64,000 nt of DNA. Origin: Nitrospirota bacterium. GTDB taxonomy: Bacteria > Nitrospirota > Thermodesulfovibrionia > UBA6902. This document shows, piece by piece, positions 7,213-30,175 of this stretch (its first letter is position 1; each line of letters begins with the position of its first letter). The position numbers and the translations under genes were made by a program. The DNA lies in assembly GCA_039715075.1 (NCBI GenBank), contig JBDLIC010000001.1:3501-67500 (forward strand), in the 5' to 3' direction. The notes beneath the pieces were generated by a model that was not told the origin of the DNA, ran no database searches, and worked only from the letters and a program-made list of their open reading frames with translations.

Positions 7213-7968
7213 ATGTCGCATAAACATAAACACGGCCATCATCACGAAAGGATATCAAAAAGCAGGGAGTGGATGAAGACTCATAAGGACACTGACCGTG
7301 ACTCGTCTGCCAGAGATGCAAAACCAAAACTGGAGTTAGTCCTGAAGTGCGATTCTGCGGGAAGCATTGAGGCAGCCGCTGCCGCTATTTTGAATATAGC
7401 CAACGATGGAATTGATATAAATATCATAAACAGCGGAGTCGGCAATATAAATCATTCAGATATCTTAATGGCAAAAACAGGCAGCAGGCTCATAGCCGGT
7501 TTTCAGGTGAATGTGCTGCCGGGGATAGAAAAGGAACTGGATGAACACAATGTAGAAGTACGTCTTTATGACGTGATCTATGCATTAACCGCCGATATAG
7601 GAAACATAACGCAGAGCATAGCTCCCCATATTCCGGAGGAAGAAATTACGGGTACTGCCAAAGTAATAACCCTTTTTAAAAGCGTCCGCAAGGGGATCAT
7701 TATAGGTTGTGAAGTGTTAGAAGGCCAATTGTCTGTTCATAAACATTTCCGTATCATTTCCGCCATGGGCCCGGTTTATTCCGGCTCTATAGAATCCATG
7801 CATATAGAAAGCGCTTCTGTCCAAAAAGCATCACCGGGACAGCAGGTGGGGATAAAAATACAGAATTTCAACAAAGCAAAAACAGGGGACATTGTAGAAT
7901 GCTACCGACCGGTTGCTGCCGGGAAAAGCAAGGCATGGCAGTCAACAGGAACTGTTATCAGAAAATAA
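7213..7968 (+). CDS. stand-alone IF2 C-terminal-domain protein with a His-rich N-terminus
   Basis: Residues around 40-250 align by eye with IF2 domains C1-C2 (LVLKCDSAGSIEA…GFQVNV…IIGCEVLEG…GDIVECY). There is no GTPase domain. The N-terminus reads MSHKHKHGHHH. Confidence 0.6.
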   Translation: MSHKHKHGHHHERISKSREWMKTHKDTDRDSSARDAKPKLELVLKCDSAGSIEAAAAAILNIANDGIDINIINSGVGNINHSDILMAKTGSRLIAGFQVNVLPGIEKELDEHNVEVRLYDVIYALTADIGNITQSIAPHIPEEEITGTAKVITLFKSVRKGIIIGCEVLEGQLSVHKHFRIISAMGPVYSGSIESMHIESASVQKASPGQQVGIKIQNFNKAKTGDIVECYRPVAAGKSKAWQSTGTVIRK

Positions 7969-8098
7969 ATTACCTCACTAATGACAATACAGTCTCTATT
8001 CCCCTCTTTAGCAAAGAGGGGCCAGGGGAGATTTTTTAAAGAAACTTTTCGTAAAATCCCCCTTAATCCCCCTTTTCCAAAGGGGGAGACTTGAAAGA
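7960..8098. repeat. MITE-like palindromic repeat (family A), long copy
   Basis: The copy contains ttcccctcttt.gcaaagaggggc.aggggagattttttaaagaaa…aaaatcccccttaatcccccttttccaaagggggagacttgaaag. It is nearly identical to the copy at 25345-25477. Confidence 0.7.
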
Positions 8099-8121
8099 AA
8101 CATTTTTCATATATTATCCCA

Positions 8122-8487
8122 CTATAACGTATTTAAAAACGCAATTAAATCCTGAATATCCTCTTCCGAAAGGTAAGTAAAAGAGGGCATTCTCTCGTAA
8201 GGCTCCAGCAGTTGTCTTTTAATATTTTCAGGAGTTGCCGGCCTTTTGCTGACCGGGAGTTTAGACTGCCTGAGTATCCCCGCCATACCGGGGCCGACGC
8301 GGTCTCCGCTTCCATCAAGGTCATGGCAGAATGCGCACTTCAGATTAAATAGTTTATCTCCCCTTGCAATACTTTCAGGGTCTGTCCGTACATTGGAGTG
8401 TATATCCCCTGTTTCAGTGGACATTTTGCAGGCAAAAACAGGCCAGACAATTAATACAGATAATATTGCGAGCTTCAGAATCTTCAT
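8122..8487 (-). CDS. class I c-type cytochrome (secreted)
   Basis: It has a signal peptide and a CAFCH haem-binding motif. Confidence 0.65.
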   Translation of the reverse strand: MKILKLAILSVLIVWPVFACKMSTETGDIHSNVRTDPESIARGDKLFNLKCAFCHDLDGSGDRVGPGMAGILRQSKLPVSKRPATPENIKRQLLEPYERMPSFTYLSEEDIQDLIAFLNTL

Positions 8488-8648
8488 TGTTATAATTGTA
8501 TCAAATGCTGCCCTTTTGTCCTAAAAAAAGATAAACGGAGAATGACGGATGAACAAAAAATGACGATTGACGAAGGAACAGATGAACAGAAAATAGCGAT
8601 TGTCGTTTTTTTTTACTTCGTAAATCGTAATTCGTCAATCGTCATTCG

Positions 8649-9488
8649 TCAATTTCTTTTTACAGGCTCTTTCCCTGTCTTGTTAATAGAGTATTGACCG
8701 GGGTCGCCAATAAAGGGCAAGACCAGCATCCACGGCAGCGTCAGCCGTCCGGCATCCCTGAACTGTGACAGTCCAATGGTCATTCCCTCATGTCCCGCAG
8801 CAGGCTGATCACGATAAGTGCCCATAAGGCGGTCCCACCACGGAATATTAAAACCGAAGTTGCTGTTTGTTTCCCTGATTGTTACTGAATGGTGGACCCT
8901 GTGCATATCCGGGGTAACAACAAAGAGTCTCAGTACCCTGTCAATATGTGCAGGCAAGCGAATATTTCCGTGGTTGAACATTGCCAGGGCATTGAGCAGA
9001 ATTTCAAATATGAGTACAGCCAGCACCGGCGCACCGAGCGCTGCGACTGAACCCATCTTTATTATCATGCTGAGGACCATCTCGATTGGATGAAAACGGA
9101 GGCCCGTTGTTACGTCATAATCAAGATCAGCGTGATGCATCATATGGAGACGCCAGAGAACAGGCACTGCATGGAACATAACATGCTGGAGATAGATAAT
9201 CATGTCCAGCAGTACGACACAGCCAATGACCGCAAACCACCCCGGAACGGCAAGATTGTTAAAAAGTCCCCACCCATTCTCCTGTGCCGTAAACGCGATA
9301 TTAATTGCCATAACAGGAAATACCGCACGCACCAGGAATGTATTTACAACAATAATTCCAAGATTGCTTACCCAGCGCACGGTCTTGGACGTGTTCAGGG
9401 TCCGGCGCGGCGACCTGATTTCCCAGATTGCCACAATGATAAAGATGCCGAGAAAAAAAACGAGTCTGACTAAAGCTTCATTTTCCAT
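8649..9488 (-). CDS. sterol desaturase/fatty-acid hydroxylase superfamily membrane protein
   Basis: It carries histidine boxes HVMFH, HMMHH and HRVHH. Confidence 0.75.
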   Translation of the reverse strand: MENEALVRLVFFLGIFIIVAIWEIRSPRRTLNTSKTVRWVSNLGIIVVNTFLVRAVFPVMAINIAFTAQENGWGLFNNLAVPGWFAVIGCVVLLDMIIYLQHVMFHAVPVLWRLHMMHHADLDYDVTTGLRFHPIEMVLSMIIKMGSVAALGAPVLAVLIFEILLNALAMFNHGNIRLPAHIDRVLRLFVVTPDMHRVHHSVTIRETNSNFGFNIPWWDRLMGTYRDQPAAGHEGMTIGLSQFRDAGRLTLPWMLVLPFIGDPGQYSINKTGKEPVKRN

Positions 9489-9492
9489 TTTA

Positions 9493-9960
9493 TTATGCCA
9501 ACGATCTCCTGAAATCGCTCAGCCACACAATATGCTCCTTCTCTTCATTGATGATTTTATTTACAATTTCTTTTTCCTTTATAACATCCTTCAGGCTTAG
9601 GAAGTACAGCAGCGTTTCCTTTTCAAACCCGATGGCAAATCGGACAACATCAGCAATAGTTTCGAGGTGATCAAGAGAGGGGAGGGATTTATTTTTACCG
9701 AGAAAAAATTCTGATTCAACAATTGCCCGCAGATACTGTGACGCTTCTTCCCACCCTTCGAGATTCTGGTCCCCGATTTTTTCTTTCAACCCGGTGAATG
9801 TTTTTTCGTGTTCCTGCTCCTTCACTGCAAGTGTTTCAAAAAACTTCCTGAATTTTTCGTCCTTGTCAAACTTGTTTGCCATGCTTATATAGAACTCATA
9901 TCCCAGTTTCTCTGTCTGAACAGCCTGCTCAATTACCTCATTGATAGAATAGTTCTCCAT
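9493..9960 (-). CDS. rubrerythrin/ferritin-like di-iron protein
   Basis: It has EQEHEK and EEKEH motifs. Confidence 0.6.
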   Translation of the reverse strand: MENYSINEVIEQAVQTEKLGYEFYISMANKFDKDEKFRKFFETLAVKEQEHEKTFTGLKEKIGDQNLEGWEEASQYLRAIVESEFFLGKNKSLPSLDHLETIADVVRFAIGFEKETLLYFLSLKDVIKEKEIVNKIINEEKEHIVWLSDFRRSLA

Positions 9961-10022
9961 GTTTCCCTCCTCTTTTTCATGAATGCATAAAATATAAATA
10001 AGTGGATATATTTATGATTTGT

Positions 10023-11987
10023 TTATTTTAAATATTTTTTTTCTTTTAAAAAAGTTTTTAATTCCCCCGGATCATGAACAGGATCATAACAGGCACCCCT
10101 TATGCATGGTATTACAGACCCGCTCTCTTTTCCATAGACTATACATGTTGATACCCCAAAAAGAGAAGCAGATATTTTGGAAAGCTCACTGTCAGGGGCT
10201 GCATTCACACTAATTTTCACTGTATTAAAATACGCGTCAAGAGAAGAAAAATAGTATCCTGCATGTACATTAACTTCCATTGCCCTTTCATTAAAAGACC
10301 TCAGTGCCTTTTCAGCATATTCAAAGTATGTTGCCTTTTCTGTAATATAATGCAGTTTCAGCAGCAGTCTGATGGCAAGTGAATTTGCCGACGGACGGGG
10401 AATATCTTCTATTTCCCTGATCCTCAAATCCAGCAGATGATCGTCAGTATCAAAAAAACCTCCGTGCTCTCTGTCCCAGAGCCTCCCAACAGAGAGTTCC
10501 ATCAATTCATCTGCCCGGTCAATGTAAGACCTGTCAGCAGTCACTTCATATGCCTCAATCAGCGCATCAATCAGATGCACATAATCATCCAGCATCGCTG
10601 GAATCCCCTCTGTGTGAAAGAGCTTCCCGTCTGCATAGAAAGTTTCCATTATCCTGTTGAGACTTCTTAGCGCCAGGTCTTTCAGGCCGCTGTCCCCGAG
10701 TATTCTGTAACCCTGTAAAAATACTGATATCAGCATGCCATTGATTGATGTGTACAGGGTCTTGTCAATAAACGGCATCTCCCTTTTGTCCCTTTCCTTC
10801 AGCAGTTTCCCCTTACCGGAATCAGCTATTTTAATAACATCTTCAATATTCATACCTGTCTCTTCTGCAATTTCCTTTGCTCCCATAACCGCAAACAGGA
10901 CTTTTTTTGAACTGTCATGATGCATGGCACCCGATTCATGCATCAGATGAAGGGAAAGGACCCTGTATTCATCATCATCAAGTATCCTCCTGAAATCTTC
11001 ATCCGTCCAAGTGAAATATCCGCCTTCATCATCAGGCGTAACATCAGCGTCCTGGCTTACATAAAACCCTCCGTCAGGGTCAGAGAGAACATCTTTTATG
11101 AACCCTGTTATCCCGACTGCAACTTCCCTGTAAAATTGATCACCGAAGACAGCATACGCAGTCAGATAGTTTCTAAACAGCCATGCATTGTCATCAGCCA
11201 TTTTTTCAAAGTGGGGGATGGTCCATGCCTCATCTGTGGAATACCGGTGAAAACCTCCGCCAAGATGGTCGCAAAAACCCCCTGCAGCCATTGAATTCAG
11301 GGTGATCCGTATAGCATGCCCGATAGATTCATCTCCGGTCATAACGTATCTGTTTATGAGAAATTCTATAGCCCCGGGCATCGGGAACTTCGGAGCACTC
11401 CCGAAACCGCCGTTCTGCATGTCAATTCCTGTAAGAATCTTCTTAGCCGTTTCATCAAGCTGGATTTCGCTTATCTCCCCATCCGGCAGAGGTAACGGTT
11501 TGAGTGAATCGAGCAGTTTCCCCGTATATTCGGCTATCTCATCCTGTTTTGATCTGTAAAACTCTGAGACTGCCCTTAATACCTTTTTAAACCCGGGCCT
11601 CCCCATCCTGTCTTCAGGCGGGAAGTATGTGCCGCCGTAAAATGGTTTCTTGTCCGGTGTAAGAAAGATGCTGAGGGGCCATCCCCCTGATTCACCCATA
11701 GCAGCAACAGCCATCTGGTACCTCCGGTCAATGTCCGGACGCTCATCCCTGTCGAGCTTAATACTGATAAAATTATCATTCAGAAGCTTCCCGGTCTCGT
11801 CATCGTAAAAACTCTCTTTGGCCATAACATGGCACCAGTGGCACCAGACCGCCCCGGAGCTCAGGAATAAAGGCTTGCCTTCCTTCTTTGCTTTTTCAAA
11901 CGATTCTTCCGACCATGGATACCAGTCGATCTTCTGTCCGGCAGCATGTTTCAGATAGGCTGACCTTTCCTTGCTCAGTCGGTTCAT
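10023..11987 (-). CDS. thioredoxin-domain protein YyaL (DUF255 plus six-hairpin glycosidase-like domain)
   Basis: The N-terminus has a CHWCH thioredoxin-like motif. The product is 654 aa, and the YyaL architecture is inferred from that length and the N-terminal motif. Confidence 0.8.
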   Translation of the reverse strand: MNRLSKERSAYLKHAAGQKIDWYPWSEESFEKAKKEGKPLFLSSGAVWCHWCHVMAKESFYDDETGKLLNDNFISIKLDRDERPDIDRRYQMAVAAMGESGGWPLSIFLTPDKKPFYGGTYFPPEDRMGRPGFKKVLRAVSEFYRSKQDEIAEYTGKLLDSLKPLPLPDGEISEIQLDETAKKILTGIDMQNGGFGSAPKFPMPGAIEFLINRYVMTGDESIGHAIRITLNSMAAGGFCDHLGGGFHRYSTDEAWTIPHFEKMADDNAWLFRNYLTAYAVFGDQFYREVAVGITGFIKDVLSDPDGGFYVSQDADVTPDDEGGYFTWTDEDFRRILDDDEYRVLSLHLMHESGAMHHDSSKKVLFAVMGAKEIAEETGMNIEDVIKIADSGKGKLLKERDKREMPFIDKTLYTSINGMLISVFLQGYRILGDSGLKDLALRSLNRIMETFYADGKLFHTEGIPAMLDDYVHLIDALIEAYEVTADRSYIDRADELMELSVGRLWDREHGGFFDTDDHLLDLRIREIEDIPRPSANSLAIRLLLKLHYITEKATYFEYAEKALRSFNERAMEVNVHAGYYFSSLDAYFNTVKISVNAAPDSELSKISASLFGVSTCIVYGKESGSVIPCIRGACYDPVHDPGELKTFLKEKKYLK

Positions 11988-12002
11988 TATTTTCGTCCTT
12001 TA

Positions 12003-12473
12003 CTATTTTTTCAATGCACTGCCGAGAAACAGCAGTATGATCCCGTCAGCAAGGAGAAGGAGGTTCAGCGATGCACTTATTGCGTGAAGTTTCCCGAACT
12101 TTTTTCTGAGGTGCGAATTATCGGCAGGAGCTTCAAAAGAATGGATTTCCTTTTTTATCTCTCTGATATCAGGGTGAAGTTTAAATGCTACAAACAGGTT
12201 AATAATAACAGCAGAGACAACCAGTGCCATTGACAACCTGAATCCGAATTTAGTGAGAAATGCGTGTATTACTATGAGAAATATAAGTGCAAGAACCGAA
12301 AGCAGCAGATTATACAGGAAGTAACCTGGAAAAAGTTTTCCGACAATCTTTCCCGCCATGTCTCTTTCAAAGTCCCTGAAAATGACCGGTGTGACAATGA
12401 ATGTAAAGATAGCAATGCCGCCAATCCAGAGCGATAACACAACGTTATAAATGAACTGCCATATATTATTCAT
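12003..12473 (-). CDS. integral membrane protein (DUF4149-like)
   Basis: The product has four predicted TM helices. It overlaps the gdhA stop by 4 nt, which indicates translational coupling. Confidence 0.45.
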   Translation of the reverse strand: MNNIWQFIYNVVLSLWIGGIAIFTFIVTPVIFRDFERDMAGKIVGKLFPGYFLYNLLLSVLALIFLIVIHAFLTKFGFRLSMALVVSAVIINLFVAFKLHPDIREIKKEIHSFEAPADNSHLRKKFGKLHAISASLNLLLLADGIILLFLGSALKK

Positions 12474-13750
12474 AGGTTACCGCGAAGTCTTTCTGCATGC
12501 AAAATCCTCTTTATCGCAATCTTGTACGCCGCCTTTTTCATGGTACACTTCTCTTCCCTGCATAGTGAATAAACATCATCAAATGCATTAATCATGACAT
12601 CCTTCAGTTTCTGCAGGACCTTCTCCTCTTCCCAGTAATCATTGTTCAGGTTCTGGATCCATTCAAAATAACTACCCACAACACCGCCGGAATTGGCGAG
12701 CACATCCGGAACCAGCATAATTGACCTTTCAAAAAATATCTGACTTGCATCTTTTGTAGTCGGCGCGTTCGCCAGTTCCAGTATTATCTTTGCCTTCACA
12801 TCTCCGGCATTGTCTTTACGAAGCTGGTCCGACATGGCAGCCGGCACCAGGACATCGCAGTCGCATGTCAGCAGCTGCTCATTTGAAATATTGTCCGATC
12901 CCCTGAAATCTGCCAGACTACCCGTCTCTTTTTTGTGCCTGATCACTTCATGGATATCCAGACCATTAAGGTTTATTATCCCTCCCTTTGAGTCACTTAC
13001 TGCAGCAACACAGTAGCCCCGCTCGTGAAGAATACGGGCAGCATTTTTTCCCACATTACCAAAGCCCTGAACGACAACGCAGACTTTGGACTTATCCATA
13101 CCCGATTCTTTCATTGCCTTTTCAAGAACATAGATCCCGCCCAGTGATGTTGAGTAGCTGCGTACTTTACTGCCTCCCAGTTCCTCGGGTTTGCCGGTAA
13201 CCACGGCAGGGACATGTTCACGTTTTAACCTCTCATATTCATCCAGCATCCAGACCATTGTGTTTTCATCCGTATACACATCAGGGGCAGGAATATCCTT
13301 GAACGGCCCTATAAAATCAGATATAATACGGATGTACGCCCTTGTCAGCGATTCGAGCTCCTCCCGCGTCAACCCCTTTGGATCTACCACAACACCGCCC
13401 TTTGCCCCCCCAAAGGGGATATTAACAACAGCACATTTCAGTGCCATCAAAAAGGCGAGGTCGCTCACATGCTGCACAGTCAGTTCAGGGTGAAACCTGA
13501 TCCCCCCCTTTGAAGGACCCCTGGCATCATTGAACTGGACTCTATGTCCAAGGAACATCTTTGTCGTACCGTTTGACAATTTCACAGGGAAGTGAGCGGT
13601 AAAAATACGTCGGGGCACACTGAGAATACCAAGTTCCGCTTCTGATAAATCAAGTTCAGAATATATACTTTCGAGTTCGGAAACGCAGAGCCTGCAGAGA
13701 CTCTTTTCGTCAATATGTATACGTTCGTGATTCTTGCTCACAGTAAACAT
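12470..13750 (-). CDS. gdhA: NAD(P)-dependent glutamate dehydrogenase
   Basis: It has the GGAKGG motif and the Glu/Leu/Phe/Val dehydrogenase N- and C-domains. Confidence 0.85.
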   Translation of the reverse strand: MFTVSKNHERIHIDEKSLCRLCVSELESIYSELDLSEAELGILSVPRRIFTAHFPVKLSNGTTKMFLGHRVQFNDARGPSKGGIRFHPELTVQHVSDLAFLMALKCAVVNIPFGGAKGGVVVDPKGLTREELESLTRAYIRIISDFIGPFKDIPAPDVYTDENTMVWMLDEYERLKREHVPAVVTGKPEELGGSKVRSYSTSLGGIYVLEKAMKESGMDKSKVCVVVQGFGNVGKNAARILHERGYCVAAVSDSKGGIINLNGLDIHEVIRHKKETGSLADFRGSDNISNEQLLTCDCDVLVPAAMSDQLRKDNAGDVKAKIILELANAPTTKDASQIFFERSIMLVPDVLANSGGVVGSYFEWIQNLNNDYWEEEKVLQKLKDVMINAFDDVYSLCREEKCTMKKAAYKIAIKRILHAERLRGNL

Positions 13751-13764
13751 TACCTCCGCAATAA

Positions 13765-14979: not shown

Positions 14980-15126
14980 GATTCCTCCTGATTATCGTTA
15001 TAATTTCTGGTCCGTTATTGCAGATGAGGACTAAAGTATAACGGATAACCATACTCTTGTCCATAATACTTCCCGTCTCAAAAACAAGTATTTAAAGAGA
15101 TTTATTACAGTTTCCAGCCGGGAAAA

Positions 15127-15165
15127 AAGCAGCAGCAGTTTTTTAACTGCTGCTGCTTTATATCA
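15127..15165. terminator. Bidirectional intrinsic terminator
   Basis: The sequence is aaaaaagcagcagcagttttttaactgctgctgcttt. It sits directly after the peroxiredoxin stop. Confidence 0.7.
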
Positions 15166-15188
15166 ACAATTGAATATCTTAAGTCCGT

Positions 15189-15809
15189 TTACTTCTCAAG
15201 TGCCTCATGCACCTTTCCTACAAGTTTTGCGGAAGGGGTAAGCGTCTTGTCTCCCTCGTCCTTCCACTTTGCCGGACATCCCTGTTGAGTATGTTTCGCA
15301 AGATGGAGGTTCGCCTTGAACTTCCTCATTAACTCATCCACATTTCTGCCCATATTGTAATAATTGACCTCAGCGTTCATGAGTGTGCCGTCAGGACTGA
15401 TGATAAATGTCCCGCGCAGTGCAAGACCCGTCTCATCATCATAAACCCCGAACATTTTCGCGAGATTTCCGGTCGGATCAGCACCCATTGAATACTTTAC
15501 GTTTGCAAGGGACTGCTCATCTCTCTGCCATGCCAGATGTACAAACTGTGTATCATTGCTTACGGTAATGATCTCGGCACCCATTTTTTTAAACCTGTCC
15601 TGCTGCTCTGCCAGAGCGGCAAACTCGGTTGCTCAGACAAAAGTAAAATCAGCGGGATAGAAAAAAAGTATGGTCCACTTCTTGTTCTTCTTGAGATTTT
15701 TAAGGCTTACCTCGCCGAAATCGCCCTTTGACGGTTCATAAGTAGTCAGCTTAAAATCCGGGATCTTTGCCCCAACATTGCATCCTAAACATTCACATGC
15801 CTCTGTCAT
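15189..15809 (-). CDS. 2-Cys peroxiredoxin with selenocysteine (in-frame UGA) at the peroxidatic position
   Basis: The listed 131-aa ORF is only the C-terminal part. Reading through the TGA at 15633-15635 gives MTEACECLGCNVGAKIPDFKLTTYEPSKGDFGEVSLKNLKKNKKWTILFFYPADFTFV[U]ATEFAALAEQQDRFKKMGAEI… The TGA sits exactly in the FTFVCPTE active-site motif. Confidence 0.7.
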
Positions 15810-16436: not shown

Positions 16437-16472
16437 TTATTCTTTCTCCTTTTATAAAACTAATATGGTTCT

Positions 16473-19657: not shown

Positions 19658-19821
19658 AAATCACCTCTTTAACCCTTTCTATATTAGAAAGGTTACAACA
19701 TTAGAATCATTCTTGTCAAGGGAAAAATTCAAAGAATCAAAAAAAGTTCAAATGATCAAATGTTCGAATGTTCGAATGCGTAATCCTTTAAACATTTTCA
19801 GGATTTCCCTTATTTACTTGT

Positions 19822-19940
19822 TACCTAATGACCTCCCCCTTTGGAAAAGTCGTAGATCCGATCCGGGGGGGATTGAGGGGGATTTTATGGAAATTTAATT
19901 TAAAAATCTCCCCTGACCCCTCTTTGCCAAAGAGGGGAAC
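19822..19940. repeat. MITE-like repeat family A (reverse orientation)
   Basis: The reverse complement matches the ttcccctctttggcaaagagggg…aaaatccccctcaatccccc…ttttccaaaggggg consensus. Confidence 0.65.
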
Positions 19941-20513: not shown

Positions 20514-20520
20514 AAAAACC

Positions 20521-20583
20521 GTTCGAACCGTTCCAACCGCTTGAGCCGTTTCAACGGTTCGAACGGTTCAAGCGGCTGAAACT
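20521..20583. terminator. Long imperfect palindrome between convergent genes (bidirectional terminator)
   Basis: The sequence reads ccgttcgaaccgttccaaccgcttgagccgtttcaacggttcgaacggttcaagcggctg. Confidence 0.55.
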
Positions 20584-22099: not shown

Positions 22100-22224
22100 G
22101 AGTTTTGCGAGGTCGGTTGTCAGAACTTTGTTCCTGGGAATGCGTCTTCTATAAATACGCTCGAGCGTTTTAAGGTCGCTCTTCTTTAAGCCCGATGTGT
22201 TGCCTAATACTGACGGAATGATCT

Positions 22225-22312
22225 CCTCCTTAAATCCCCCCTAACCCCCCCTTTTCCAAAGTGGGGAACTATGCAAGTCCCACTTTGGAAAAGGGGGATT
22301 TAGGGGGATTTT
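22225..22312. repeat. MITE-like repeat family A (short/inverted-dimer variant)
   Basis: The sequence reads cccctaacccccccttttccaaagtgggga…cccactttggaaaagggggatttagggggatttttt. Confidence 0.6.
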
Positions 22313-24970
22313 TTAATGCGCTTCCCCCCAGTTTAACCCAATCCCCATATCAACCTTGAGCGGAACGGAAAGATCAACCGCATTTTCCATTTCCTCCCGG
22401 ACCAGCTCCTGAATAATATCTTTTTCATTTTCCGGGACTTCGAATAACAACTCATCGTGGACCTGGAGAAGCATTTTTGTCTTTAACCCTTCTTTTTTCA
22501 ATCTCCTATGAATATTCAGCATGGATACTTTTATTATGTCAGCCGCCGAGCCCTGGACAGGTGTGTTGGTAGCAAGCCTCTCACCTAGCTGGCGTATATT
22601 TTTATTTGAGCTTTTCAGTTCAGGGATTGCCCTTTTTCTGTTAAAGATTGTCTTGACATATCCGTCCTTTGAGACCTTTTGTATTAATGAATCAATATAG
22701 TCCTTAACACCGCTGAACCGCGAAAAATATGTATCAATATAAAACTTTGCCTCATCAACAGGAATCCCGAGCTGCTGGCTCAGGCCATATGGACTCATAC
22801 CATAAACAATCCCGAAGTTCACGGTCTTGGCATTCCGCCTCATTTCGTCAGTCACTTTTTCAGCTGCAACTCCAAACAGCCCGCATGCTGTCCTTGTATG
22901 AATATCTCCGTCATTATTAAATTCATCAACAAGCTCTTTGTCCCCGCTGAGATGTGCAAAAACCCGGAGCTCTATCTGGGAGTAATCCGAAGAGAGAAGC
23001 AGGTTGCCCTTTTCAGCGATAAAGGCCTCTCTTATCTTTTTGCCCCATTCACCCCTGATCGGGATATTCTGGAGATTCGGAGCTGAACTGCTGAGTCTTC
23101 CCGTGGCTGTAATGGTCTGATTGAATGAAGTATGGATCCTGCCGGTCTTTGGATTTACAAGCCTTGGAAGGGCATCTACATATGTACTTTTGAGTTTTGA
23201 GAGTGCCCTGTATTCAATTATCTCTTTGGGCAGTTCATGCTGAAGTGCAAGCTGTTCAAGGACATCAATGTTTGTTGAATACCCTGTTTTAATTTTTTTA
23301 ATCGGTTTAAGGCCCAGCTTCTCAAAGAGAATTTCCTGGAGCTGTTTTGGAGAATTAATATTAAATTCATCACCCGCAATAAAATATATCCTCTTCTTAA
23401 TACTCGCGAGCTCCCTCTCCATTTTTTCTGAAAAAGATTCCATCAGCGGCAGGTCAATCTTTATACCCGCCATCTCCATATCAGCGAGGACTTCTATCAA
23501 AGGCACCTCTATATCATGGAACAGCCCTGACAACCCCTCTTTTTCAATTTCAGGACTGAATATCTCCTGCAACCTTAATGTAACAGCAGAATCCTCTCCC
23601 GAATACTCAGCGGCCTCATCAACAGGGACTTCACTGAAATCTTTCCTGTCTTTACCGACTATATCCTTGAATGAGATCTTTTGAATACCGAGCCGTTCCA
23701 TTGATACGTCAGTGAGGTTATGGTTTGCCTTGTTCGGGTTCAGCAGATAGGAGGCAAGCATTGTATCAAAAGCAACGCCTCTCACATCTATCCCTTCATT
23801 CCTTAAGACAATAAGGTCATATTTTATATTGTGGCCTGTTTTTTTGATTCCGGGATCTTCAAGAATCCCCTTCATCTCCTTAAGCACCAGGTCTTTGGAC
23901 AGCTGCTCAGGCATCCCCATGTAATGATGTGAAACCGGTATATAATATGCTCTCTCAGGGTTCACAGAAAAAGACACTCCCACGAGCTGCGCAGTCATGG
24001 GGAATTTCGAGGTTGTTTCAGTATCAATCGTAACTTCATCTTTTATCGAAGCAAGGGCCTTCTTCAGTGTGTCTTTATCCAGGACAGTTATGTATTCCGA
24101 CTTTACCGGTACGGGCGCCCTCCTGTCCGGGACCAGTTTCAGCAGACTGTTAAACTCGAACTCCCGGAAATACTCCTCCAGCTTTTCCCATTCAGGTTCC
24201 CGCAGCTCAAAATCGTTCATCGTGATATCAAGCTGAAGGTCTGTATGAAGGGTAGCCAGTTCTTTGCTGAGCCTTATATTTTCTATGTTTGCAGCCACTG
24301 CATTCTGCGCCCGCTTATTCTTTATACTGGAACAATTATTAATCACCTCTTCAAGGCTCCCGAATTCTTTCAGGAGTTTCACCGCGGTTTTTTCACCTAT
24401 CCCGGGCGCTCCCGGTATATTGTCCGATGCGTCCCCCATCAACGCCAGGATCTCAGGGAACTGCGAAGGCTTGACTCCGAAACGTTCAACCACATCCTTC
24501 TCTTCCGTGATCTTCTCTTTCATGCTGTCATACAGGCGGACCTTCTTTGTTATAGACTGACACATGTCTTTGTCCCCGGTAACAATGTATACATCTATCC
24601 CGGATGATTCAGCCTGTTTCGAGATGGTCCCGAGCAGATCGTCAGCCTCGTAACCTTCCATTTCAATCGTAAATATGTTGAAGGCATGCATAATGTCTTT
24701 TATCAGCGGGAACTGCGGCCTCAGGTCATCGGGCATCTCAGGCCGGTGGGCCTTGTACTCTTCGTACATTTTATGTCTGTGGGTCGGGCCCTGTGTATCA
24801 AATACAATCCCGAAATAATCAGGATTTTTCTCTTTCAGGATCTTGAATATCATATTGGTAAAACCGAAAACAGCATTCGTAGGCACCCCTGAAGACGATG
24901 TCAGGCCCCTTATTGCATAAAAAGCACGATAGACATAGGAGTTCCCGTCTATGAGATAAAGTGAAGGCAT
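22313..24970 (-). CDS. polA: DNA polymerase I
   Basis: The 885-aa product has a 5'-3' exonuclease, a 3'-5' exonuclease and polymerase motifs. Confidence 0.9.
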   Translation of the reverse strand: MPSLYLIDGNSYVYRAFYAIRGLTSSSGVPTNAVFGFTNMIFKILKEKNPDYFGIVFDTQGPTHRHKMYEEYKAHRPEMPDDLRPQFPLIKDIMHAFNIFTIEMEGYEADDLLGTISKQAESSGIDVYIVTGDKDMCQSITKKVRLYDSMKEKITEEKDVVERFGVKPSQFPEILALMGDASDNIPGAPGIGEKTAVKLLKEFGSLEEVINNCSSIKNKRAQNAVAANIENIRLSKELATLHTDLQLDITMNDFELREPEWEKLEEYFREFEFNSLLKLVPDRRAPVPVKSEYITVLDKDTLKKALASIKDEVTIDTETTSKFPMTAQLVGVSFSVNPERAYYIPVSHHYMGMPEQLSKDLVLKEMKGILEDPGIKKTGHNIKYDLIVLRNEGIDVRGVAFDTMLASYLLNPNKANHNLTDVSMERLGIQKISFKDIVGKDRKDFSEVPVDEAAEYSGEDSAVTLRLQEIFSPEIEKEGLSGLFHDIEVPLIEVLADMEMAGIKIDLPLMESFSEKMERELASIKKRIYFIAGDEFNINSPKQLQEILFEKLGLKPIKKIKTGYSTNIDVLEQLALQHELPKEIIEYRALSKLKSTYVDALPRLVNPKTGRIHTSFNQTITATGRLSSSAPNLQNIPIRGEWGKKIREAFIAEKGNLLLSSDYSQIELRVFAHLSGDKELVDEFNNDGDIHTRTACGLFGVAAEKVTDEMRRNAKTVNFGIVYGMSPYGLSQQLGIPVDEAKFYIDTYFSRFSGVKDYIDSLIQKVSKDGYVKTIFNRKRAIPELKSSNKNIRQLGERLATNTPVQGSAADIIKVSMLNIHRRLKKEGLKTKMLLQVHDELLFEVPENEKDIIQELVREEMENAVDLSVPLKVDMGIGLNWGEAH

Positions 24971-24990
24971 GGGGTATTATACACCAAGGG

Positions 24991-25245
24991 CTAGATTACT
25001 TTTATCTTGTTGTCTTTAAGAAATTGAATCGTTTTACTGCAGACAGGAGTGGATGTTTTGACACTTATTCTGGAATCAGGTTGTATTGCTTTGATCTTAT
25101 CCGCCTTTTCAAGAATCTTCCTTCCATCAGACATAATTATCCGGCTCTTCCGGGAGATTACAAAGGCAAAATGGTTTTTGCTTATCTGTTGAATTACTGT
25201 CTTTGGAGGAAGACCGAATTCTTTGGGATCAATAACCGTGTCCAT
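24991..25245 (-). CDS. small hypothetical protein
   Basis: An 84-aa ORF in an operon position downstream of polA. Confidence 0.4.
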   Translation of the reverse strand: MDTVIDPKEFGLPPKTVIQQISKNHFAFVISRKSRIIMSDGRKILEKADKIKAIQPDSRISVKTSTPVCSKTIQFLKDNKIKVI

Positions 25246-25344
25246 TTAATTTTCAATAGTATACATAAGCCCCATTTTTTATTGCAAAAACAGTTTTTAA
25301 AGAAAATGAAGCTCCCCGCCTACAAGGCAGGGCATCAAAAAGAA

Positions 25345-25477
25345 TAACTTTATTAATGATAATGCAATCTGTATTCCCCTCTTTGGCAAAGAGGGGCTAG
25401 GGGAGATTTTTTAAAGAAATTATTCGTAAAATCCCCCTTAATCCCCCTTTTCCAAAGGGGGAGACTTGAAAGGAGAA
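25345..25477. repeat. MITE-like repeat family A, long copy
   Basis: It is near-identical to the 7960-8098 copy. Confidence 0.7.
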
Positions 25478-25698
25478 CTCGAAGAACGACTGTGAGTCAA
25501 TAACTTCAGCTCAAATCTATAATTGATGATTATATCTACTTATTAATAATTTTGGAATTTAGCTGAGATTGTTGATACCACCTGATAATCAATAATCTGT
25601 GAATATTTGAAAATTGATGATTACATGTAGAAGAGCGAATAGAAAGTAACAAATCAGGCAGATTTCCTTTTGACGAACCGCCTGCTTGCAAAGCATGT

Positions 25699-27024
25699 TC
25701 ATGGATATATGGCATTAAATAACCTATTTGCCCGTTCATTATCAAGGTCTTTCAGTGTCTTGTATTCATCTAAGGCAGAACCCTGATCATCTTCTAAAAT
25801 ATAAATAAGACCAAGCTTAAAGTGTACCTCTGCATCATCAGGTTTAAGCCTGATTACCTGTTTGTAGGCATCTACTGCTTCCTGATACTTACCTAAATCT
25901 GCATAGGCAAGACCAAGATTATTGTGTAGAGTTGCATCATCAGGTTTAATCCCGATTGCCTGCTTGAAAGCATCAATTGCTTCTTGATATTTGCCTAACT
26001 CTCCATAGGCAAGACCAAGATTATTGTGTACAGTTGATTGTTCAGGTTTAATCTTGATTGACTGCTTAAGGGCATCTACTGCTTCCTGATTTTTGCCCAA
26101 CTTCCAATAGGCAAGACCAAGATTAGCACGTGCTTCTGCATAGGCAGGTTTGATCCTGATTGTCTGTTTGAAGGCATCCACTGCCTCCTGATACTGGCCT
26201 GATTTAACATAAGCAGTACCAAGATTATTATGTCCAGTTGCATCATCAGGTTTAATTCTGATTACCTGCTTAAAGGCATCTACTGCCTCCTGATACTTGC
26301 CCAATTTCATATAGAGTACTGCAAGATTATTGTGTGCATTTGCATGGTCAGGCTCAATCCTGATTGCCTGCTTGTAGGCATCTTCTGCCATCTGATACTT
26401 TCTCAAATCCTCATAGGAAATTTCAAAATTATAGTGTGCGACTAAATAATCAACAGGTAAAATCTTGATTGCCTGTTTGAAGACATCCTCTGGCTCCAGA
26501 TACTTGCTCAATCTCCTATAAGCATTACCAAGCATATTGTATGCATCTGCATGGCCAGGTTCAATCCTGATTGCCTGCTTGAAGGCATCCACTGCCTCCT
26601 GATACTTACCCAATTTCATGTAAGCAATACCATGATTGTAATGTGCATTGGCATAATCAGGTTCAATCCTGATTGCCTGCTTGAAGGCATCCACTGCCTC
26701 CTGATACTTGCCCAACTTCCTATAGATAAAACCAAGACTATAGTGTGCTTGTCCATAATCGGGATCAATCCTGATTGCCTGTTTTAAGGCATTTACTGCT
26801 TCCTGATTTTTGCCCAAATTCCCATAGGAAAGACCAAGATTGTAGTATGCGTCGGCATCTTCAGGTTCAATCCTAATTACTTGTTTGTAGGCATCTACGG
26901 CCTCTTGATGCTTGCCCGATTCAGCATAGGCAAGAGCAAGTTCAAAATAATAACCTTCATCCTTCATCTGATTATTAGCCTTGTCTGAATCAGCAAAGGC
27001 AATAGATGTGATAATAAATACCAA
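25699..27024 (-). CDS. TPR-repeat protein with about 12 near-identical 34-aa units; secreted
   Basis: The 102-nt units are almost identical at the DNA level. The listed start is TTG. A signal peptide (KRNFVFVVLIFLVFIITSIAFA) lies in frame just upstream, so the true start is a few codons earlier. Confidence 0.7.
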   Translation of the reverse strand: MVFIITSIAFADSDKANNQMKDEGYYFELALAYAESGKHQEAVDAYKQVIRIEPEDADAYYNLGLSYGNLGKNQEAVNALKQAIRIDPDYGQAHYSLGFIYRKLGKYQEAVDAFKQAIRIEPDYANAHYNHGIAYMKLGKYQEAVDAFKQAIRIEPGHADAYNMLGNAYRRLSKYLEPEDVFKQAIKILPVDYLVAHYNFEISYEDLRKYQMAEDAYKQAIRIEPDHANAHNNLAVLYMKLGKYQEAVDAFKQVIRIKPDDATGHNNLGTAYVKSGQYQEAVDAFKQTIRIKPAYAEARANLGLAYWKLGKNQEAVDALKQSIKIKPEQSTVHNNLGLAYGELGKYQEAIDAFKQAIGIKPDDATLHNNLGLAYADLGKYQEAVDAYKQVIRLKPDDAEVHFKLGLIYILEDDQGSALDEYKTLKDLDNERANRLFNAIYP

Positions 27025-27271
27025 GAAAATGAGAACAACGAAGACAAAGTTTCTTTTAATAAAAATAGATTCATTTTCTTAACCTTTTTTGAAAACAAAT
27101 AACCAATATACTAAGACTTTCAAGTTGAAGTCGATAACAACATGTACGCATCACTGACGAGTGCCGCTCAATCATAAAAACATGCCTGAAACTGTTTCTG
27201 CACGCTTCATCACAATGCAAGCCCAAAAGTGTCCTGCGGCACTCATTTATATGTCGGATAATTGTGTGCTG

Positions 27272-28276
27272 TCATGCGGTCAACAGTTTTTCAAGTAGTG
27301 CTTTGGTTGTTATTACTGCTTTGTATGTCTCATCACTTGAAGCTTGCTTCAACACATGAACAGCAGCATTTCGTTTCTTTCTGATTTTATCCGCCTTTTT
27401 TGCTTCGCCGTCATCTAATATTTTCTCTATTCTTGCATTTTCAATTAGCACTTGAAAGTCTTTCTCCTTAAAACCTTTCAATCCTTTGCTCTTATCAATA
27501 TCATAAACAAGTTTGTGGTCTTTTCTTAACAACACCTGCTTGAGAATCGCTTCAAGAATTGAACAACTCAAAATCAATGAGGCAGTATTAAGGCCATGGC
27601 ACCATGCATCCATTGCTTGCTGAAAATAGGTTCTTATTTCGTTGTTTGGTCTTACGGTGATGAATGTTGGCTTAATCATTTTTACTCTTTCAATGTAGTC
27701 TCCAACAATATTAACCATTAGTCCAGAAAAACCACCAGAAAATATTTCATCAGATAGTTCATCATAACTTATATTTTCCCAAAGGTCGTCGATTGCCACG
27801 ATCGCATCTGACATTAATTCAGAGTCCTCAAAATACAAGAAATCGCCCGGATGCCACATAAGATGTTTTACAATTTCTTTAGCATATTCACTTACTTCAT
27901 CTGAGTATTTAAAAAAAGAATCAGGTGTAGCAGTTTTTGATTTATATTCTTTGTGAAGGTCAACTAAACCCTTAATGGTTATTACGAGCGGCTCAGAAGT
28001 AGCATCAACACCTTCATGAAATCTAAGCCCACCAAAAGCGACAAGATAAACAGTAGACCGGCACTTCTGGCAACGGATTTGTTTTGTAATCTCTAAAGCA
28101 GTTTCCGAGAATACCTTCAATTTTTCATCGTTTGAAAAATCTTTGGGTTCGGCATTCAATTTATCTTTTAAACTCTGAAATATAGGATGTTGCTCGATAA
28201 AAAATGTATATTTGCATTTCTTGCATCGAAACTCGAACAATTGAGCCTCCATTAGGCTTTCTTTTGAATCCAGCAA
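27272..28276 (-). CDS. Zn-ribbon protein with a C-terminal HEPN-like (DUF4145-like) domain
   Basis: The N-terminus has CKKCKY…CQKCRS. The C-terminal helical region ends with …KIRKKRNAAVHVLK…, an R-N-x3-H HEPN motif. It overlaps the upstream gene by 25 nt. Confidence 0.45.
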   Translation of the reverse strand: MLDSKESLMEAQLFEFRCKKCKYTFFIEQHPIFQSLKDKLNAEPKDFSNDEKLKVFSETALEITKQIRCQKCRSTVYLVAFGGLRFHEGVDATSEPLVITIKGLVDLHKEYKSKTATPDSFFKYSDEVSEYAKEIVKHLMWHPGDFLYFEDSELMSDAIVAIDDLWENISYDELSDEIFSGGFSGLMVNIVGDYIERVKMIKPTFITVRPNNEIRTYFQQAMDAWCHGLNTASLILSCSILEAILKQVLLRKDHKLVYDIDKSKGLKGFKEKDFQVLIENARIEKILDDGEAKKADKIRKKRNAAVHVLKQASSDETYKAVITTKALLEKLLTA

Positions 28277-28560
28277 ATGTATTGCCGATCTATTTCAACT
28301 AGACTATCAAGAGATAAGTCTTTGTATTGCATATCTGAAGGAATAAAATCAGTAATTACCGCGATAAAGGTATTTTCTGATGTCTTGTCTTTTATTGTCA
28401 TCTCTATTTTATTACCTTTATAAAAAGCAGATACGAAATGTCCAATATCAACAGGTCCATCAATTGAAGAGAATATGTCACTGGTATTATTGCCAGTATA
28501 TTTTTGCGTGATGCCCCGACGTTCGCAAGTGTCCCATTTTAGTTTCTTGATTTCAGTCAT
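28252..28560 (-). CDS. hypothetical protein (operon member)
   Basis: A 102-aa ORF with no recognisable motif. Confidence 0.45.
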   Translation of the reverse strand: MTEIKKLKWDTCERRGITQKYTGNNTSDIFSSIDGPVDIGHFVSAFYKGNKIEMTIKDKTSENTFIAVITDFIPSDMQYKDLSLDSLVEIDRQYICWIQKKA

Positions 28561-28593
28561 TATAATGCCTCCAAACGATCCATTAGTTCTTTC

Positions 28594-28944
28594 CTATTGC
28601 CTTATCAGGCCATGCCTTGTCCGATAATTATAAACAGCCGTCTGAGCTTGTCTATATCCAAACCCAAGCCTTTCCAGGTGGTGTATACAATCCATTGGCG
28701 CTTTCGTTTGGGCATTGAACTCACTTAGAATTTGATCATATTCTTCGCGCGACCCTCTACGGGATGAAATGATATTTTCTCCGTGATACAAATATACATA
28801 AGCCCCATTCTTCGCTTGCCCTCTGGTGGTCCCAGCTTCCATGAGTAGCCGTTCACATTCTGATTGCGAAAGCCCCAGAGTCATAGCATCGTGACTATCG
28901 AGAATACGAATGTATTCTTCCTGTGTAAATCTCTTGGTTTGCAT
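28594..28944 (-). CDS. hypothetical protein (operon member, possible HTH)
   Basis: A 116-aa ORF. Confidence 0.45.
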   Translation of the reverse strand: MQTKRFTQEEYIRILDSHDAMTLGLSQSECERLLMEAGTTRGQAKNGAYVYLYHGENIISSRRGSREEYDQILSEFNAQTKAPMDCIHHLERLGFGYRQAQTAVYNYRTRHGLIRQ

Positions 28945-28973
28945 GACGTTACCCCCTCCTCATAATATTTTAT

Positions 28974-29477
28974 TTACAACTCGTTCACAGTCTTCTTCAT
29001 TTGGTCTTTAAGGACATCGACTGCGACCTTAACGAGCACCTCTTCAGGCTTACTGTCTAATAGGTGAGCCAGAGCTCTCAGAACATCCGAATCACCTTTC
29101 CGCAACCGAACAGTATAGGTGACATATGTGTCTAATTTTTCAGGAGTTGAGTCACTTGTAGCACTATTACTCGTTAGCTTGGAGAAAAAGTCGTTTATTC
29201 TGTCATGGTAGAAACTTGACGTCTTGCTTAACAACTTGTTGCACAATTCATTTGTGTCGCCCTCTAAACTAGCTTTGAGCATCGTTTTGAATTCCCCTAC
29301 ATCAAGATCAAGCCTTCTCGCACAAGCGTCACCAATAGTCTGGTAGGCGACTGCGCACTCTTGAGAAACTCGGCTGACTCCATATTGGTAAGAACGATCA
29401 ATTCCATCTCCAAGACTGTAACGTTGAGCGGCCACCGAAATGACCTTCATAATTTGATCTAAAGTACCCTGTCTCAT
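28974..29477 (-). CDS. hypothetical protein (first gene of operon)
   Basis: A 167-aa ORF. Upstream is an AT-rich region of about 200 nt. Confidence 0.45.
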   Translation of the reverse strand: MRQGTLDQIMKVISVAAQRYSLGDGIDRSYQYGVSRVSQECAVAYQTIGDACARRLDLDVGEFKTMLKASLEGDTNELCNKLLSKTSSFYHDRINDFFSKLTSNSATSDSTPEKLDTYVTYTVRLRKGDSDVLRALAHLLDSKPEEVLVKVAVDVLKDQMKKTVNEL

Positions 29478-30114
29478 GACTACCTTTCACAATATTGCCT
29501 TACGTTATCGTAAGGCCTATATAAGATAATAAAGGTATTTAAGGTTTTTGTCAATATAAGTATTTAGAGCATAACGGAATCAATAAGATATTGACATCCT
29601 CTCTGCCTTGAATGACTAAAAAACCCCTGTAATTCATGCCGCACAGGATGGCACCTCAATAAATCTCCTCCTGCAAAAACATCTTGCTTTCAATATATTA
29701 TTGCAGTGTACTCGAAATTATCCTCGGAATATTTCGAGAGGTATGCTATTTTGGATGAGAGAAAAAGAAAAAGTCGGTGTCCTTGTTGGAAGATTTGAGG
29801 ATGCCGATATATTAGAGGAAGAGAAAAGCCGAATTTATCTATTACCGTACTGGATGATTTGAGGCGTTTGACACTCCAACAGCTAAAGCCAATTGGATTC
29901 TCAGATGATTTTATAAAAAAGAAGGCATTATTGAAACTGTTTTTTGCATTTAGTGGCACTATATGTAAAATGCTATTATGTATTACCATAATATTGGGGT
30001 TGAAAAGATTACATAAGGCCTGGACAAAAAGATCTCTTGTCTGGCTTTCTGGTGTTCGATAAGAATGAAGACTCCCAGCCGCAGAGACAGCGGGGTATCG
30101 TTAGGTAAAAAAAC

Positions 30115-30175
30115 TATTATTTTAAAAAATCCCCCCTCGCCCCCCTTTTCCAAAGTGGGGATTAAGAGGAAACCC
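30115..30175. repeat. MITE-like repeat family A (short copy)
   Basis: The sequence reads aaaaaatcccccctcgccccccttttccaaagtgggga. It is flanked by the near-identical decamers gcagagacag and gcagagactg. Confidence 0.6.

Follow-up and report, generated by a model that had tools for sequence, protein, structure and literature searches.

Triplex-class intergenic repeats of a Nitrospirota genome as likely derivatives of small DUF559 nuclease elements

Results

Five intergenic loci carry copies of a short palindromic unit

The stretch analysed here, which we refer to as the window, comprises 64 kb of a metagenome-assembled genome of a Nitrospirota bacterium (contig JBDLIC010000001.1, positions 3,501 to 67,500), and our subject is repeat family A, a set of short palindromic sequences that lie between its genes. 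Locus 1 is situated between convergent genes for an IF-2-domain open reading frame (ORF) and a cytochrome c, locus 2 between the divergent genes for Fur and cytochrome P460, locus 3 between the genes for PolA and HflX, locus 4 between those for a TPR protein and PolA (in the 3' region of the TPR gene), and locus 5 between a small ORF and an SNF2 helicase gene that are divergent. An unfiltered covariance model (CM) run over all 64 kb found nine units of ~38 nt at these five loci (Table 1), eight of them full units scoring 48-61 bits and the ninth split by a 15-nt insertion, and found no family A unit in the remaining 42 kb of the window. Simple patterns gave 4 matches against 0.00 expected for the 33-nt core (with up to 3 mismatches), 16 matches (8 sites, read on both strands) against 0.02 expected for the 19-nt hairpin, and 9 matches against 0.40 expected for AAAATCYCCCY.

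A sequence-only reading of the window had reported repeats at these five loci, all of them intergenic, and both observations are borne out: each locus holds the repeat, and all nine units lie between called ORFs with Pfam support, that is, between ordinary genes. The same reading described an element of 60-135 bp whose long form gains additional sequence. The loci are real, but the repeat is the ~38-nt unit, present alone or as inverted doublets, and the long form consists of two different unit types placed head to head.

Five of the units are on the + strand and four on the - strand. Loci 1, 2 and 4 are head-to-head doublets, in which a unit on the - strand, a spacer of ~15 nt and a unit on the + strand follow one another with the hairpins pointing outward; locus 3 is a tail-to-tail doublet and locus 5 a solo unit. 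All four doublets are heterotypic, and among 97 short doublets none paired alpha with alpha and 85 paired an alpha with a non-alpha unit. Loci 1 and 4 have 136 nt in common at 90% identity, and the three head-to-head doublets can be aligned across both units and the spacer and so descend from one composite; locus 2 is arranged like loci 1 and 4 with the two unit types exchanged. Note that it is the alpha unit of locus 2 that is split, its loop being separated from the 3' arm by the 15-nt insertion TCGTAGATCCGATCC (19845-19859). At locus 3, the alpha unit begins immediately past the polA stop codon, and as single-stranded DNA the doublet is predicted to form a long hairpin of ~34 bp (-33 to -34 kcal/mol, z ~ -7). 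The predicted folds of the window copies are strong (z -4.5 to -7.5; ViennaRNA folding, which does not model triplexes).

Table 1. Family A units and adjoining segments in the window
Feature	Position	Strand	Basis or remark
Left flank common to loci 1 and 4	7962-7998		Within the 136-nt stretch of 90% identity; outside the unit proper
Delta unit (AAATCTCCCC-TGG-CCCCTCTTTGCTAAAGAGGGG), left half of head-to-head doublet 1	7999-8036	-	CM 54.1 bits
Doublet 1 spacer	8037-8051		Comparison with leaders and trailers of gene-carrying elements
Alpha unit (AAAATCCCCC-TTAAT-CCCCCTTTTCCAAAGGGGGA), right half of doublet 1	8052-8089	+	CM 60.8 bits
Disrupted alpha unit, left half of doublet 2	~19830-19887	-	Partial CM matches 19860-19887 and 19839-19849; alignment
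Delta unit, right half of doublet 2	19902-19939	+	CM 56.9 bits
Beta unit (C6 runs), left half of tail-to-tail doublet (locus 3)	22230-22268	+	CM 48.0 bits
Alpha unit, right half of tail-to-tail doublet (locus 3)	22276-22313	-	CM 55.3 bits
Delta unit, left half of doublet 4	25374-25411	-	CM 57.1 bits
Alpha unit, right half of doublet 4	25427-25464	+	CM 60.8 bits; identical to 8052-8089
Solo beta unit between divergent genes (locus 5)	30125-30162	+	CM 57.0 bits

The unit has the anatomy of an intrastrand triplex motif

Read on its C-rich strand, the unit consists of AAAT-C(C/T)CCC(C/T), a linker of 3-5 nt and (C/T)CCC(C/T)CTTT-NNN-AAAG(G/A)GGG(G/A); its form in the window is CCCCCTTT-NNN-AAAGGGGG-N3-5-GGGGGATTT. 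The hairpin has 9 bp and a variable 3-nt loop, and the C-run upstream of it is a mirror image of the 5' arm of the hairpin rather than a repeat or complement of the stem. The two hairpins described in the sequence-only reading are present, but this third segment had been overlooked, and it is the third segment that makes each unit a triplex-type motif resembling the BoxC or PIT (potential intrastrand triplex) elements.

In 55 units taken from loci selected by protein similarity alone, 98.4% of the hairpin cells are paired, with 34 cells changed on both sides (0 of 500 shuffles as high). Aligned in parallel with the purine arm, the third segment matches T to A or C to G in 96.8% of cells, and this register has 34 double-change cells compared with 12.3+-2.3 in shuffles (0 of 500 as high) and at most 6 in slid registers. 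Among 476 unique units, the counts for third-strand T against purine-arm A are 172/17/28/209 at columns (12,36), 53/10/6/405 at columns (8,32) and 8/5/1/456 at columns (9,33); all four variable positions covary in the mirror register, and shifted registers show no positive association, with two exceptions. The mirror rule is kept by at least 5-6 unit types, including TCCCCCT/TCCCCCT, TCCCCCC/CCCCCCT, TCTCCCC/CCCCTCT, TCCCTCC/CCTCCCT and TCCCTCT/TCTCCCT. A protein that reads duplex DNA cannot read a mirror repeat in the same way, and the mirror covariation is the mark of a third strand in the groove of the hairpin.

We therefore take the unit to be an intrastrand triplex motif of the BoxC/PIT/TMECO class. 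The G-rich strand, in the order C-stem, G-stem, G-third, should be able to fold as an intrastrand purine-motif triplex (triads G.G-C, A.A-T and T.A-T), and the C-rich strand as one of the pyrimidine motif (C+.G-C and T.A-T); the conserved AAAT (ATTT on the G strand) would extend the purine-motif triplex over the A-T pairs of the stem. A generic triplex-motif finder at n=8 recovers five of the window units.

Repeats of the BoxC/PIT/triplex-motif kind have been catalogued since the 1990s, reportedly by Bachellier et al. in that decade and by Hoyne et al. in 2000, and their origin and spread were left open. PIT element and TMECO are later names for BoxC, the first given on its rediscovery. The TMECO pattern, CCCTCNCCC-N3-6-GGGNGAGGG-N3-GGGNGAGGG, has 23 copies in MG1655 (Holder et al. 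2015, PMC4666352). These are always intergenic and on either strand, include five close inverted pairs that each join a type A to a type B, form a stable triplex in vitro by circular dichroism and nuclear magnetic resonance, and are associated with rearrangement; as their authors state, no transposase, integrase or other mobility function lies near them (PMC4666352). By the anatomy and covariation described above, family A is a lineage-specific version of this class and a new sequence family within it.

Units of family A bracket DUF559 genes

In a scan of one genome per species, the core pattern was matched at 117 loci at least. Among the matches listed are Nitrospirota, Thermodesulfobacteriota, Desulfuromonadota, Gamma- and Betaproteobacteria, Schekmanbacteria, Aminicenantes, Elusimicrobia, Parcubacteria, Dehalococcoidales and anammox Planctomycetes, and the cultured isolates among them include Lysobacter sp. 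Root916 and CA196, Pseudoxanthomonas gei, Chromatium okenii, Nitrosomonas supralitoralis and Geomonas sp. Red32; the form of the unit is retained in the high-G+C Lysobacter. Units are thus found far beyond the window, contrary to a reservation in the sequence-only reading that copies might be limited to it. Neighbouring units are nearly always inverted with respect to each other (62 tail-to-tail, 58 head-to-head and 16 direct). (Carriage of the units by phages was entertained and set aside, the core pattern being present in only 6 viral contigs.)

Clustering of the ORFs at these pattern-selected loci gave one recurrent small family beside the units, and Pfam identified it as DUF559 (PF04480, E ~1e-35). 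At 6 of 8 pattern-selected loci, the DUF559 gene is exactly bracketed by a unit on the - strand and a unit on the + strand. As an independent test, we scanned metagenomes with a DUF559 protein alignment only, and scored the 70 loci that had at least 120 nt on each side of the gene. A unit(-) upstream was combined with a unit(+) downstream at 42 of these loci, units were present on one side at 18 and absent at 10, so that units stand beside the DUF559 gene in 60 of the 70. The median gaps between unit and gene are 9 and 8 nt, and the background of units more than 300 nt away from DUF559 genes is 0.13 per kb.

Measured from outer hairpin to outer hairpin, the resulting element is 411-491 bp long (~430 bp), and its only gene is that for DUF559, a Vsr-like PD-(D/E)xK nuclease of ~115 aa. 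Elements that are 86-92% identical occur on contigs with unrelated flanks, and the homology ends at the outer hairpin ends. The DUF559 ORFs are intact in 79 of 80 cases, with D52, E63, D65 and H69 invariant at a median pairwise identity of 57%; among PDB structures, the closest is that of another DUF559 protein (3HRL), followed at a greater distance by the homing endonuclease I-Bth0305I (3R3P, E 8e-4). We found no target-site duplication, in that direct repeats of 3-9 nt at the ends of 80 head-to-head and 29 tail-to-tail arrangements are no commoner than those 25 nt outward.

In one element (L193, ~2520-2565), the loop of the right hairpin is interrupted by a G+C-rich insertion, and this insertion, together with that in the alpha hairpin of locus 2, suggests that the hairpins are themselves targets of insertion or rearrangement. 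At another locus (L116) the DUF559 ORF ends in a '...PLLQRGEVTS' tail. For annotation, the DUF559 element explains such recurrent spurious peptide extensions on DUF559 and hypothetical proteins and, likewise, the spurious small ORFs that read through the units of the window ('...PLFSKEGPGEIF' and '...PLWKSRRSDPGGIEGDF').

DUF559 is one of the gene families that a published table lists as enriched among the predicted targets of programmed inversions (PMC9881135). We found no paper linking DUF559 to triplex or BoxC repeats in a literature search whose coverage was incomplete, so that novelty is unproven. The association between DUF559 and the repeats is strong and, as far as we can tell, undescribed.

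The window copies are absent from orthologous spacers of relatives

No unit is present in 64.5 kb of three relatives (HflX 83-87% identical). In the polA-hflX spacer, where the window has a doublet of 82 nt directly after the polA stop codon, one relative (L201) is empty and another (L200) has an unrelated palindrome at the position of the doublet. In the Fur-P460 spacer, 22 nt separate the delta unit of the window doublet from a conserved promoter-like site downstream of it (TTGACT-16-TATTAT, cytochrome P460 gene), and L200 is without the doublet. Because the relatives lack units in the orthologous spacers, the window copies are insertions in this lineage.

The head-to-head doublets in the window have spacers (GGGGAGATTTTTTAAAGAAA / YTWTTCGTAAAATCCCCC) similar to the leader and trailer of elements that carry the gene, the sequences compared being leaders such as GGGGGGATTTTAAAG followed by ATG and trailers such as TTTGTAAAATCCCCC. 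In particular, the doublet 1 spacer with its adjacent T/A runs resembles a 5' leader joined to a 3' trailer, as would be expected after deletion of the ORF. Decay of this kind is seen at one orthologous site, at which an intact element in L072 is matched in L010 by a 275-bp tandem array whose copies have lost the ORF but retain 29-aa remnants of DUF559. Given the spacer resemblance and the decay seen between L072 and L010, the window copies are probably best read as ORF-less derivatives of DUF559 elements.

Triplex motifs also accompany distant DUF559 genes, including ycjD of E. coli

We inspected 13 DUF559 loci from cultured bacteria with the generic triplex-motif finder, the homologues being 37-46% identical. 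Homologues occur on plasmids and chromids in cultured cyanobacteria, Deinococcus, Azospirillum, Sinorhizobium, Sphingomonas, Photobacterium and Neisseria. Triplex motifs are located no more than 250 nt from the DUF559 gene at 12 of the 13 loci (cyanobacteria, Deinococcus and alpha-, beta- and gamma-proteobacteria), with stems of 8-10 triads at 9 of the 13; they are mostly inverted on both sides of the gene, and their sequence is lineage-specific. (On plasmid pGJ3-1 of Photobacterium sp. GJ3 (L216, locus 1857-3294), 12 triplex motifs of two alternating types extend over 1.4 kb directly downstream of the DUF559 gene.)

The only DUF559 gene of E. coli K-12 is ycjD, and the end of this gene falls inside a degenerate BoxC hairpin. 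Downstream of it is a duplicate of its last ~40 nt joined to a partial BoxC motif (L198, NC_000913.3 1351190-1351430), which looks like the scar of a second DUF559 element, and a full TMECO (BoxC) copy follows ~170 nt downstream of ycjD. The gene is present in 3378 of 5426 complete E. coli genomes. In a spread sample of these, a ycjD+BoxC query matched 11-27 places in genomes with ycjD and 1-16 places in genomes without it (medians ~19 and ~4), raw figures that are confounded by phylogroup. The higher counts in genomes with ycjD fit the hypothesis that DUF559 and the repeats are connected.

According to a recent study, ycjD occupies the place of the eefRABCD operon, which has been lost there on at least two independent occasions (PMC12817139). 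We considered the fabI-sapF interval of E. coli as a clean pair of occupied and vacant sites and rejected it: the other allele carries a TetR regulator and an RND efflux operon, in agreement with that report (PMC12817139). Since this alternative allele is a different gene block, the interval is uninformative on mechanism.

Other features of the window

A second repeat family, TGTAGGGGCAGGTCTTGCGCCTGCCCCTACA, is unrelated to family A and is found at 7113-7141, 34239-34267, 34324-34351, 35150-35178, 57757-57785 and 57801-57836. It has the GTAG/CTAC feet typical of classical REP (repetitive extragenic palindromic) elements, and one inverted pair, 97% complementary with 48 nt between the arms, is REPIN-like. 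A third palindromic family (GTTCGAAC / GATCAAGCG-type motifs) is present in the window at 19760-19780 and 20517-20568 and in L200 at 9765-9835 and 12095-12150; a copy of this third family fills the polA-hflX spacer of L200 exactly where the window has its family A doublet.

Beside locus 4 is a G+C-rich hairpin, CCCCGCCTACAAGGCAGGG (25307-25335), that is called terminator-like on the - strand, and the doublet lies between it and the stop codon of the TPR gene. Another G+C-rich hairpin, CCCAGCCGCAGAGACAGCGGGG (30070-30100), adjoins locus 5. The ORF next to locus 1 (7213-7968, +) is a stand-alone one of 251 aa that has only the C-terminal domains of IF-2 (PF11987 and PF14578), a His-rich N-terminus and no GTPase domain. 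Within the 441-aa TPR gene, tandem repeats of 102 nt (25732-26952) correspond to 34-aa TPR units. Four copies of a 54-nt tandem repeat, 65-100% identical to the reference copy, occupy 42704-42973. Heptamer tandem repeats (AGCTGAC/AGCTGAA..., GAGTTTA/GAGTCAT...) form inverted blocks at 60913-61604 that surround two tRNA-Ser genes (60952-61039 and 61249-61339) and the signal recognition particle RNA (61420-61517). Finally, a c-di-GMP-I-GGC riboswitch aptamer was detected at 644-726 (-), with 65.7 bits against a gathering score of 59.

Discussion

We consider it likely that family A consists of triplex-class repeats that are the ends of ~430-bp DUF559 elements, and that the window holds ORF-less derivatives of such elements inserted in this lineage. 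In the mechanism that we envisage, a DUF559 gene located somewhere else in the genome would provide the nuclease in trans. This enzyme would work on the ends, folded or palindromic, and repair of the breaks would then copy either the element or one of its ORF-less derivatives, leaving no target-site duplication. Copies lacking the gene would be non-autonomous passengers, effects on neighbouring genes (hairpins in 3' untranslated regions, read-through blocks) would be incidental, and the instability reported at such sites would be a by-product. The anatomy and covariation of the units, the bracketing of DUF559, the precise boundaries of the elements, their intact and conserved nuclease ORFs and the insertion polymorphism are observed; movement of the copies by the DUF559 nuclease is what we infer.

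Several points weigh against this interpretation. The 64-kb window has no DUF559 gene, and simple deletion of an ORF fails to account for tail-to-tail doublets or solo units. The loci selected by protein similarity are the 80 nearest to a query itself derived from loci with flanking units, so that the 60-86% figures for bracketing and for units beside the gene hold for this subfamily only. The covariation counts are phylogenetically non-independent, with a signal carried by ~5-6 unit types. The relation between protein similarity and end type is weak (0.596 vs 0.572), and specific recognition of the ends is thus not supported. The head-to-head spacers vary continuously in length and sequence (1-120 nt), which fits deletion derivatives rather than a uniform 'empty site'. 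To our knowledge, nuclease activity on such ends, transposition and homing have never been demonstrated, and we know of no PD-(D/E)xK nuclease that moves DNA alone. In earlier work, the PIT elements of E. coli had no promoter, terminator or polymerase-blocking effect in vivo (PMC4666352).

A wider proposal, which we advance tentatively, is that DUF559 genes with triplex-forming ends constitute an unrecognised autonomous selfish element of ~430 bp, and that the BoxC, PIT and TM repeats found throughout bacteria, those of E. coli K-12 and the window copies included, are its non-autonomous remnants. If so, a Vsr-like PD-(D/E)xK nuclease, and not a transposase or recombinase, would drive the element, and the instability at such sites would be explained. 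Lineage-specific versions of the triplex motif are present beside DUF559 in cyanobacteria, Deinococcus, rhizobia, Neisseria and E. coli. The link to DUF559 offers an origin, one open to testing, for the BoxC/triplex repeats, which have lacked an explanation in E. coli and many other bacteria. If the nuclease does drive the repeats, then a role is found for DUF559, a large family of domains of unknown function, the mechanism behind a common class of bacterial repeats is identified, and a new minimal type of mobile element is defined. In E. coli, ycjD and BoxC allow the idea to be put to a direct test.

An alternative that we regard as unlikely reverses the relationship between gene and repeat: DUF559 would be a free-standing homing endonuclease that targets pre-existing head-to-head doublets, gene-less doublets would be vacant targets, the repeats would have spread by some other route, and the flanking ~40-bp units would serve as homology arms for copying the gene in. 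Such a scheme accommodates the relationship of DUF559 to the catalytic domain of I-Bth0305I, the position of the gene exactly between two units with gaps of ~9 nt, the absence of target-site duplication, the window spacers, which read as uninterrupted leader plus trailer, and the shuffling of end types among protein lineages, as expected if genes move between doublets. It leaves unexplained, however, how units arrive at new sites and why tail-to-tail and solo forms exist, and the high variability of the spacers is unlike a conserved recognition site. Moreover, the DUF559 remnants inside the L010 doublets show that deletion occurs, and among the orthologous sites compared there was no pair of an occupied and a cleanly vacant allele; what was seen was the intact/decayed pair (L072/L010) and conserved occupancy. 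The E. coli alternative to ycjD is a whole operon, not an empty site.

We give still less credence to the possibility that the units are structural or regulatory elements selected by the host (terminators, insulators, stabilisers of mRNA ends, or replication or recombination signals) and that DUF559 is incidental. The strong predicted folds are in keeping with this possibility, as are the positions of locus 1 between convergent genes, locus 3 right after the polA stop codon and locus 4 3' of the TPR gene; furthermore, the G-rich strand forms a hairpin followed a few bases on by a G-run and a T-run, and the palindrome of L200 at the same polA-hflX position suggests a site that tolerates or needs a hairpin. 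The genes on either side of loci 2 and 5, on the other hand, are divergent, a setting in which a terminator would serve no purpose, and the T-run of the unit is 8-10 nt away from the hairpin. A terminator scan called only one unit hairpin (delta, 19917-19937), its other calls within units being alternative pairings. Relatives with the same genes have no units, and the spacer of L201 is empty; the PIT element of E. coli is without promoter or terminator activity (PMC4666352); and host selection explains neither near-identical 33-mers across phyla of very different G+C nor the boundaries of the elements.

It is very improbable that the units are REP/REPIN or IS200/IS605-type (PATE) substrates of a Y1 HUH transposase (RAYT or TnpA) encoded elsewhere in the genome. 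Short intergenic palindromes that are single or in inverted doublets and lack target-site duplication would suit such a system, the linear motif beside the hairpin resembles a guide sequence with its hairpin, and the separate GTAG-type REP family in the window indicates that systems of this kind probably exist in the genome. The unit consensus, though, has at its hairpin foot neither GTAG/CTAC nor any similar conserved tetranucleotide, loci picked by DUF559 similarity carry units at both ends of the gene, and REP sequences are species-specific whereas family A is common to several phyla. The small family that recurs beside the units is DUF559, in ORF clusters that were not screened for Y1 transposases.

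That the copies are genes for small structured RNAs, as the sequence-only reading had also suggested, would suit their intergenic location and stable predicted folds but has a negligible probability: the copies match nothing in Rfam at the gathering score (permissive, sub-threshold matches being the noise of eukaryotic microRNA hairpins), they occur in both orientations and every gene context with no conserved promoter/terminator frame, they bracket a protein gene, and their mirror covariation fits a DNA triplex of the purine motif, which does not form in RNA (PMC4666352).

(A few further candidates were rejected. An integron cassette or toxin-antitoxin array, which the multi-phylum matches and the 275-bp periodicity of L010 had brought to mind, does not agree with flanking genes that are housekeeping ones, and the units have no R''/R' cores (RYYYAAC ... 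GTTRRRY) of an integron attC site. On inspection of the sequence, the spacing is off by one for a sigma-54 promoter, the loop is too variable for a CsrA-type GGA loop, and a G-quadruplex or i-motif would require four runs on one strand, which are not present, the mirror covariation fitting a triplex.)

Comparison with known systems

Taken as the ends of DUF559 elements, the units of family A can be set beside four kinds of known system. The sequence-only reading had called them MITE/REP-like, mobile or structural (MITE, miniature inverted-repeat transposable element); they are indeed dispersed, intergenic, palindromic and absent from the orthologous spacers of relatives, but they belong to neither REP elements nor classical MITEs, having no GTAG foot, no target-site duplication above control and a DUF559 nuclease in place of a transposase.

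With REP, BIME and REPIN sequences, family A has in common short intergenic palindromes that often form inverted doublets, no target-site duplication, and many gene-less copies per genome with one or few protein-coding partners. It differs from the REP/RAYT system in the GTAG foot, which it lacks, in its partner, which is a PD-(D/E)xK protein of the DUF559 family and not a Y1 HUH transposase, and in having a third, mirror segment and the same sequence across phyla. MITEs derived from insertion sequences are similar in that terminal inverted repeats surround a short core, ORF-less forms outnumber gene-carrying ones and internal deletion is documented, here at one orthologous site (L072 vs L010). 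Unlike MITEs, however, family A shows no target-site duplication and no DDE transposase, DUF559 is all that the full-length relative encodes, the autonomous element measures no more than ~430 bp in its entirety, and units also occur tail-to-tail and alone. Vsr-like/EDxHD homing endonuclease genes (I-Bth0305I, 3R3P) encode a small nuclease of the same fold family, and free-standing homing genes likewise have a selfish-looking distribution, precise boundaries and no target duplication; the DUF559 gene, in contrast, is not in an intron or intein, and its structured inverted repeats are abundant without the gene as well.

The BoxC/PIT/TMECO repeats of E. coli resemble family A in their three segments (C-stem, loop, G-stem, short loop and mirror G-segment), in size (~37 nt there), in being strictly intergenic in either orientation, and in occurring singly or as close inverted heterotypic pairs, which join A (loop TTA) to B (loop CCG) in E. 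coli and alpha (linker T..AT) to beta, gamma or delta in family A. In both cases, the stems are highly conserved and the loops variable, and copy number is sharply different between related genomes. The differences are that family A has C5-6/T3 stems and a 3-nt hairpin loop where TMECO has CCCTCNCCC, and does not match the TMECO pattern; that near-identical 33-mers of family A occur across many phyla; and that the triplex was seen in vitro for TMECO and is predicted from the sequence for family A. Lastly, whereas the 2015 study reported no mobility functions for TMECO, the units of family A are the ends of DUF559 gene cassettes.

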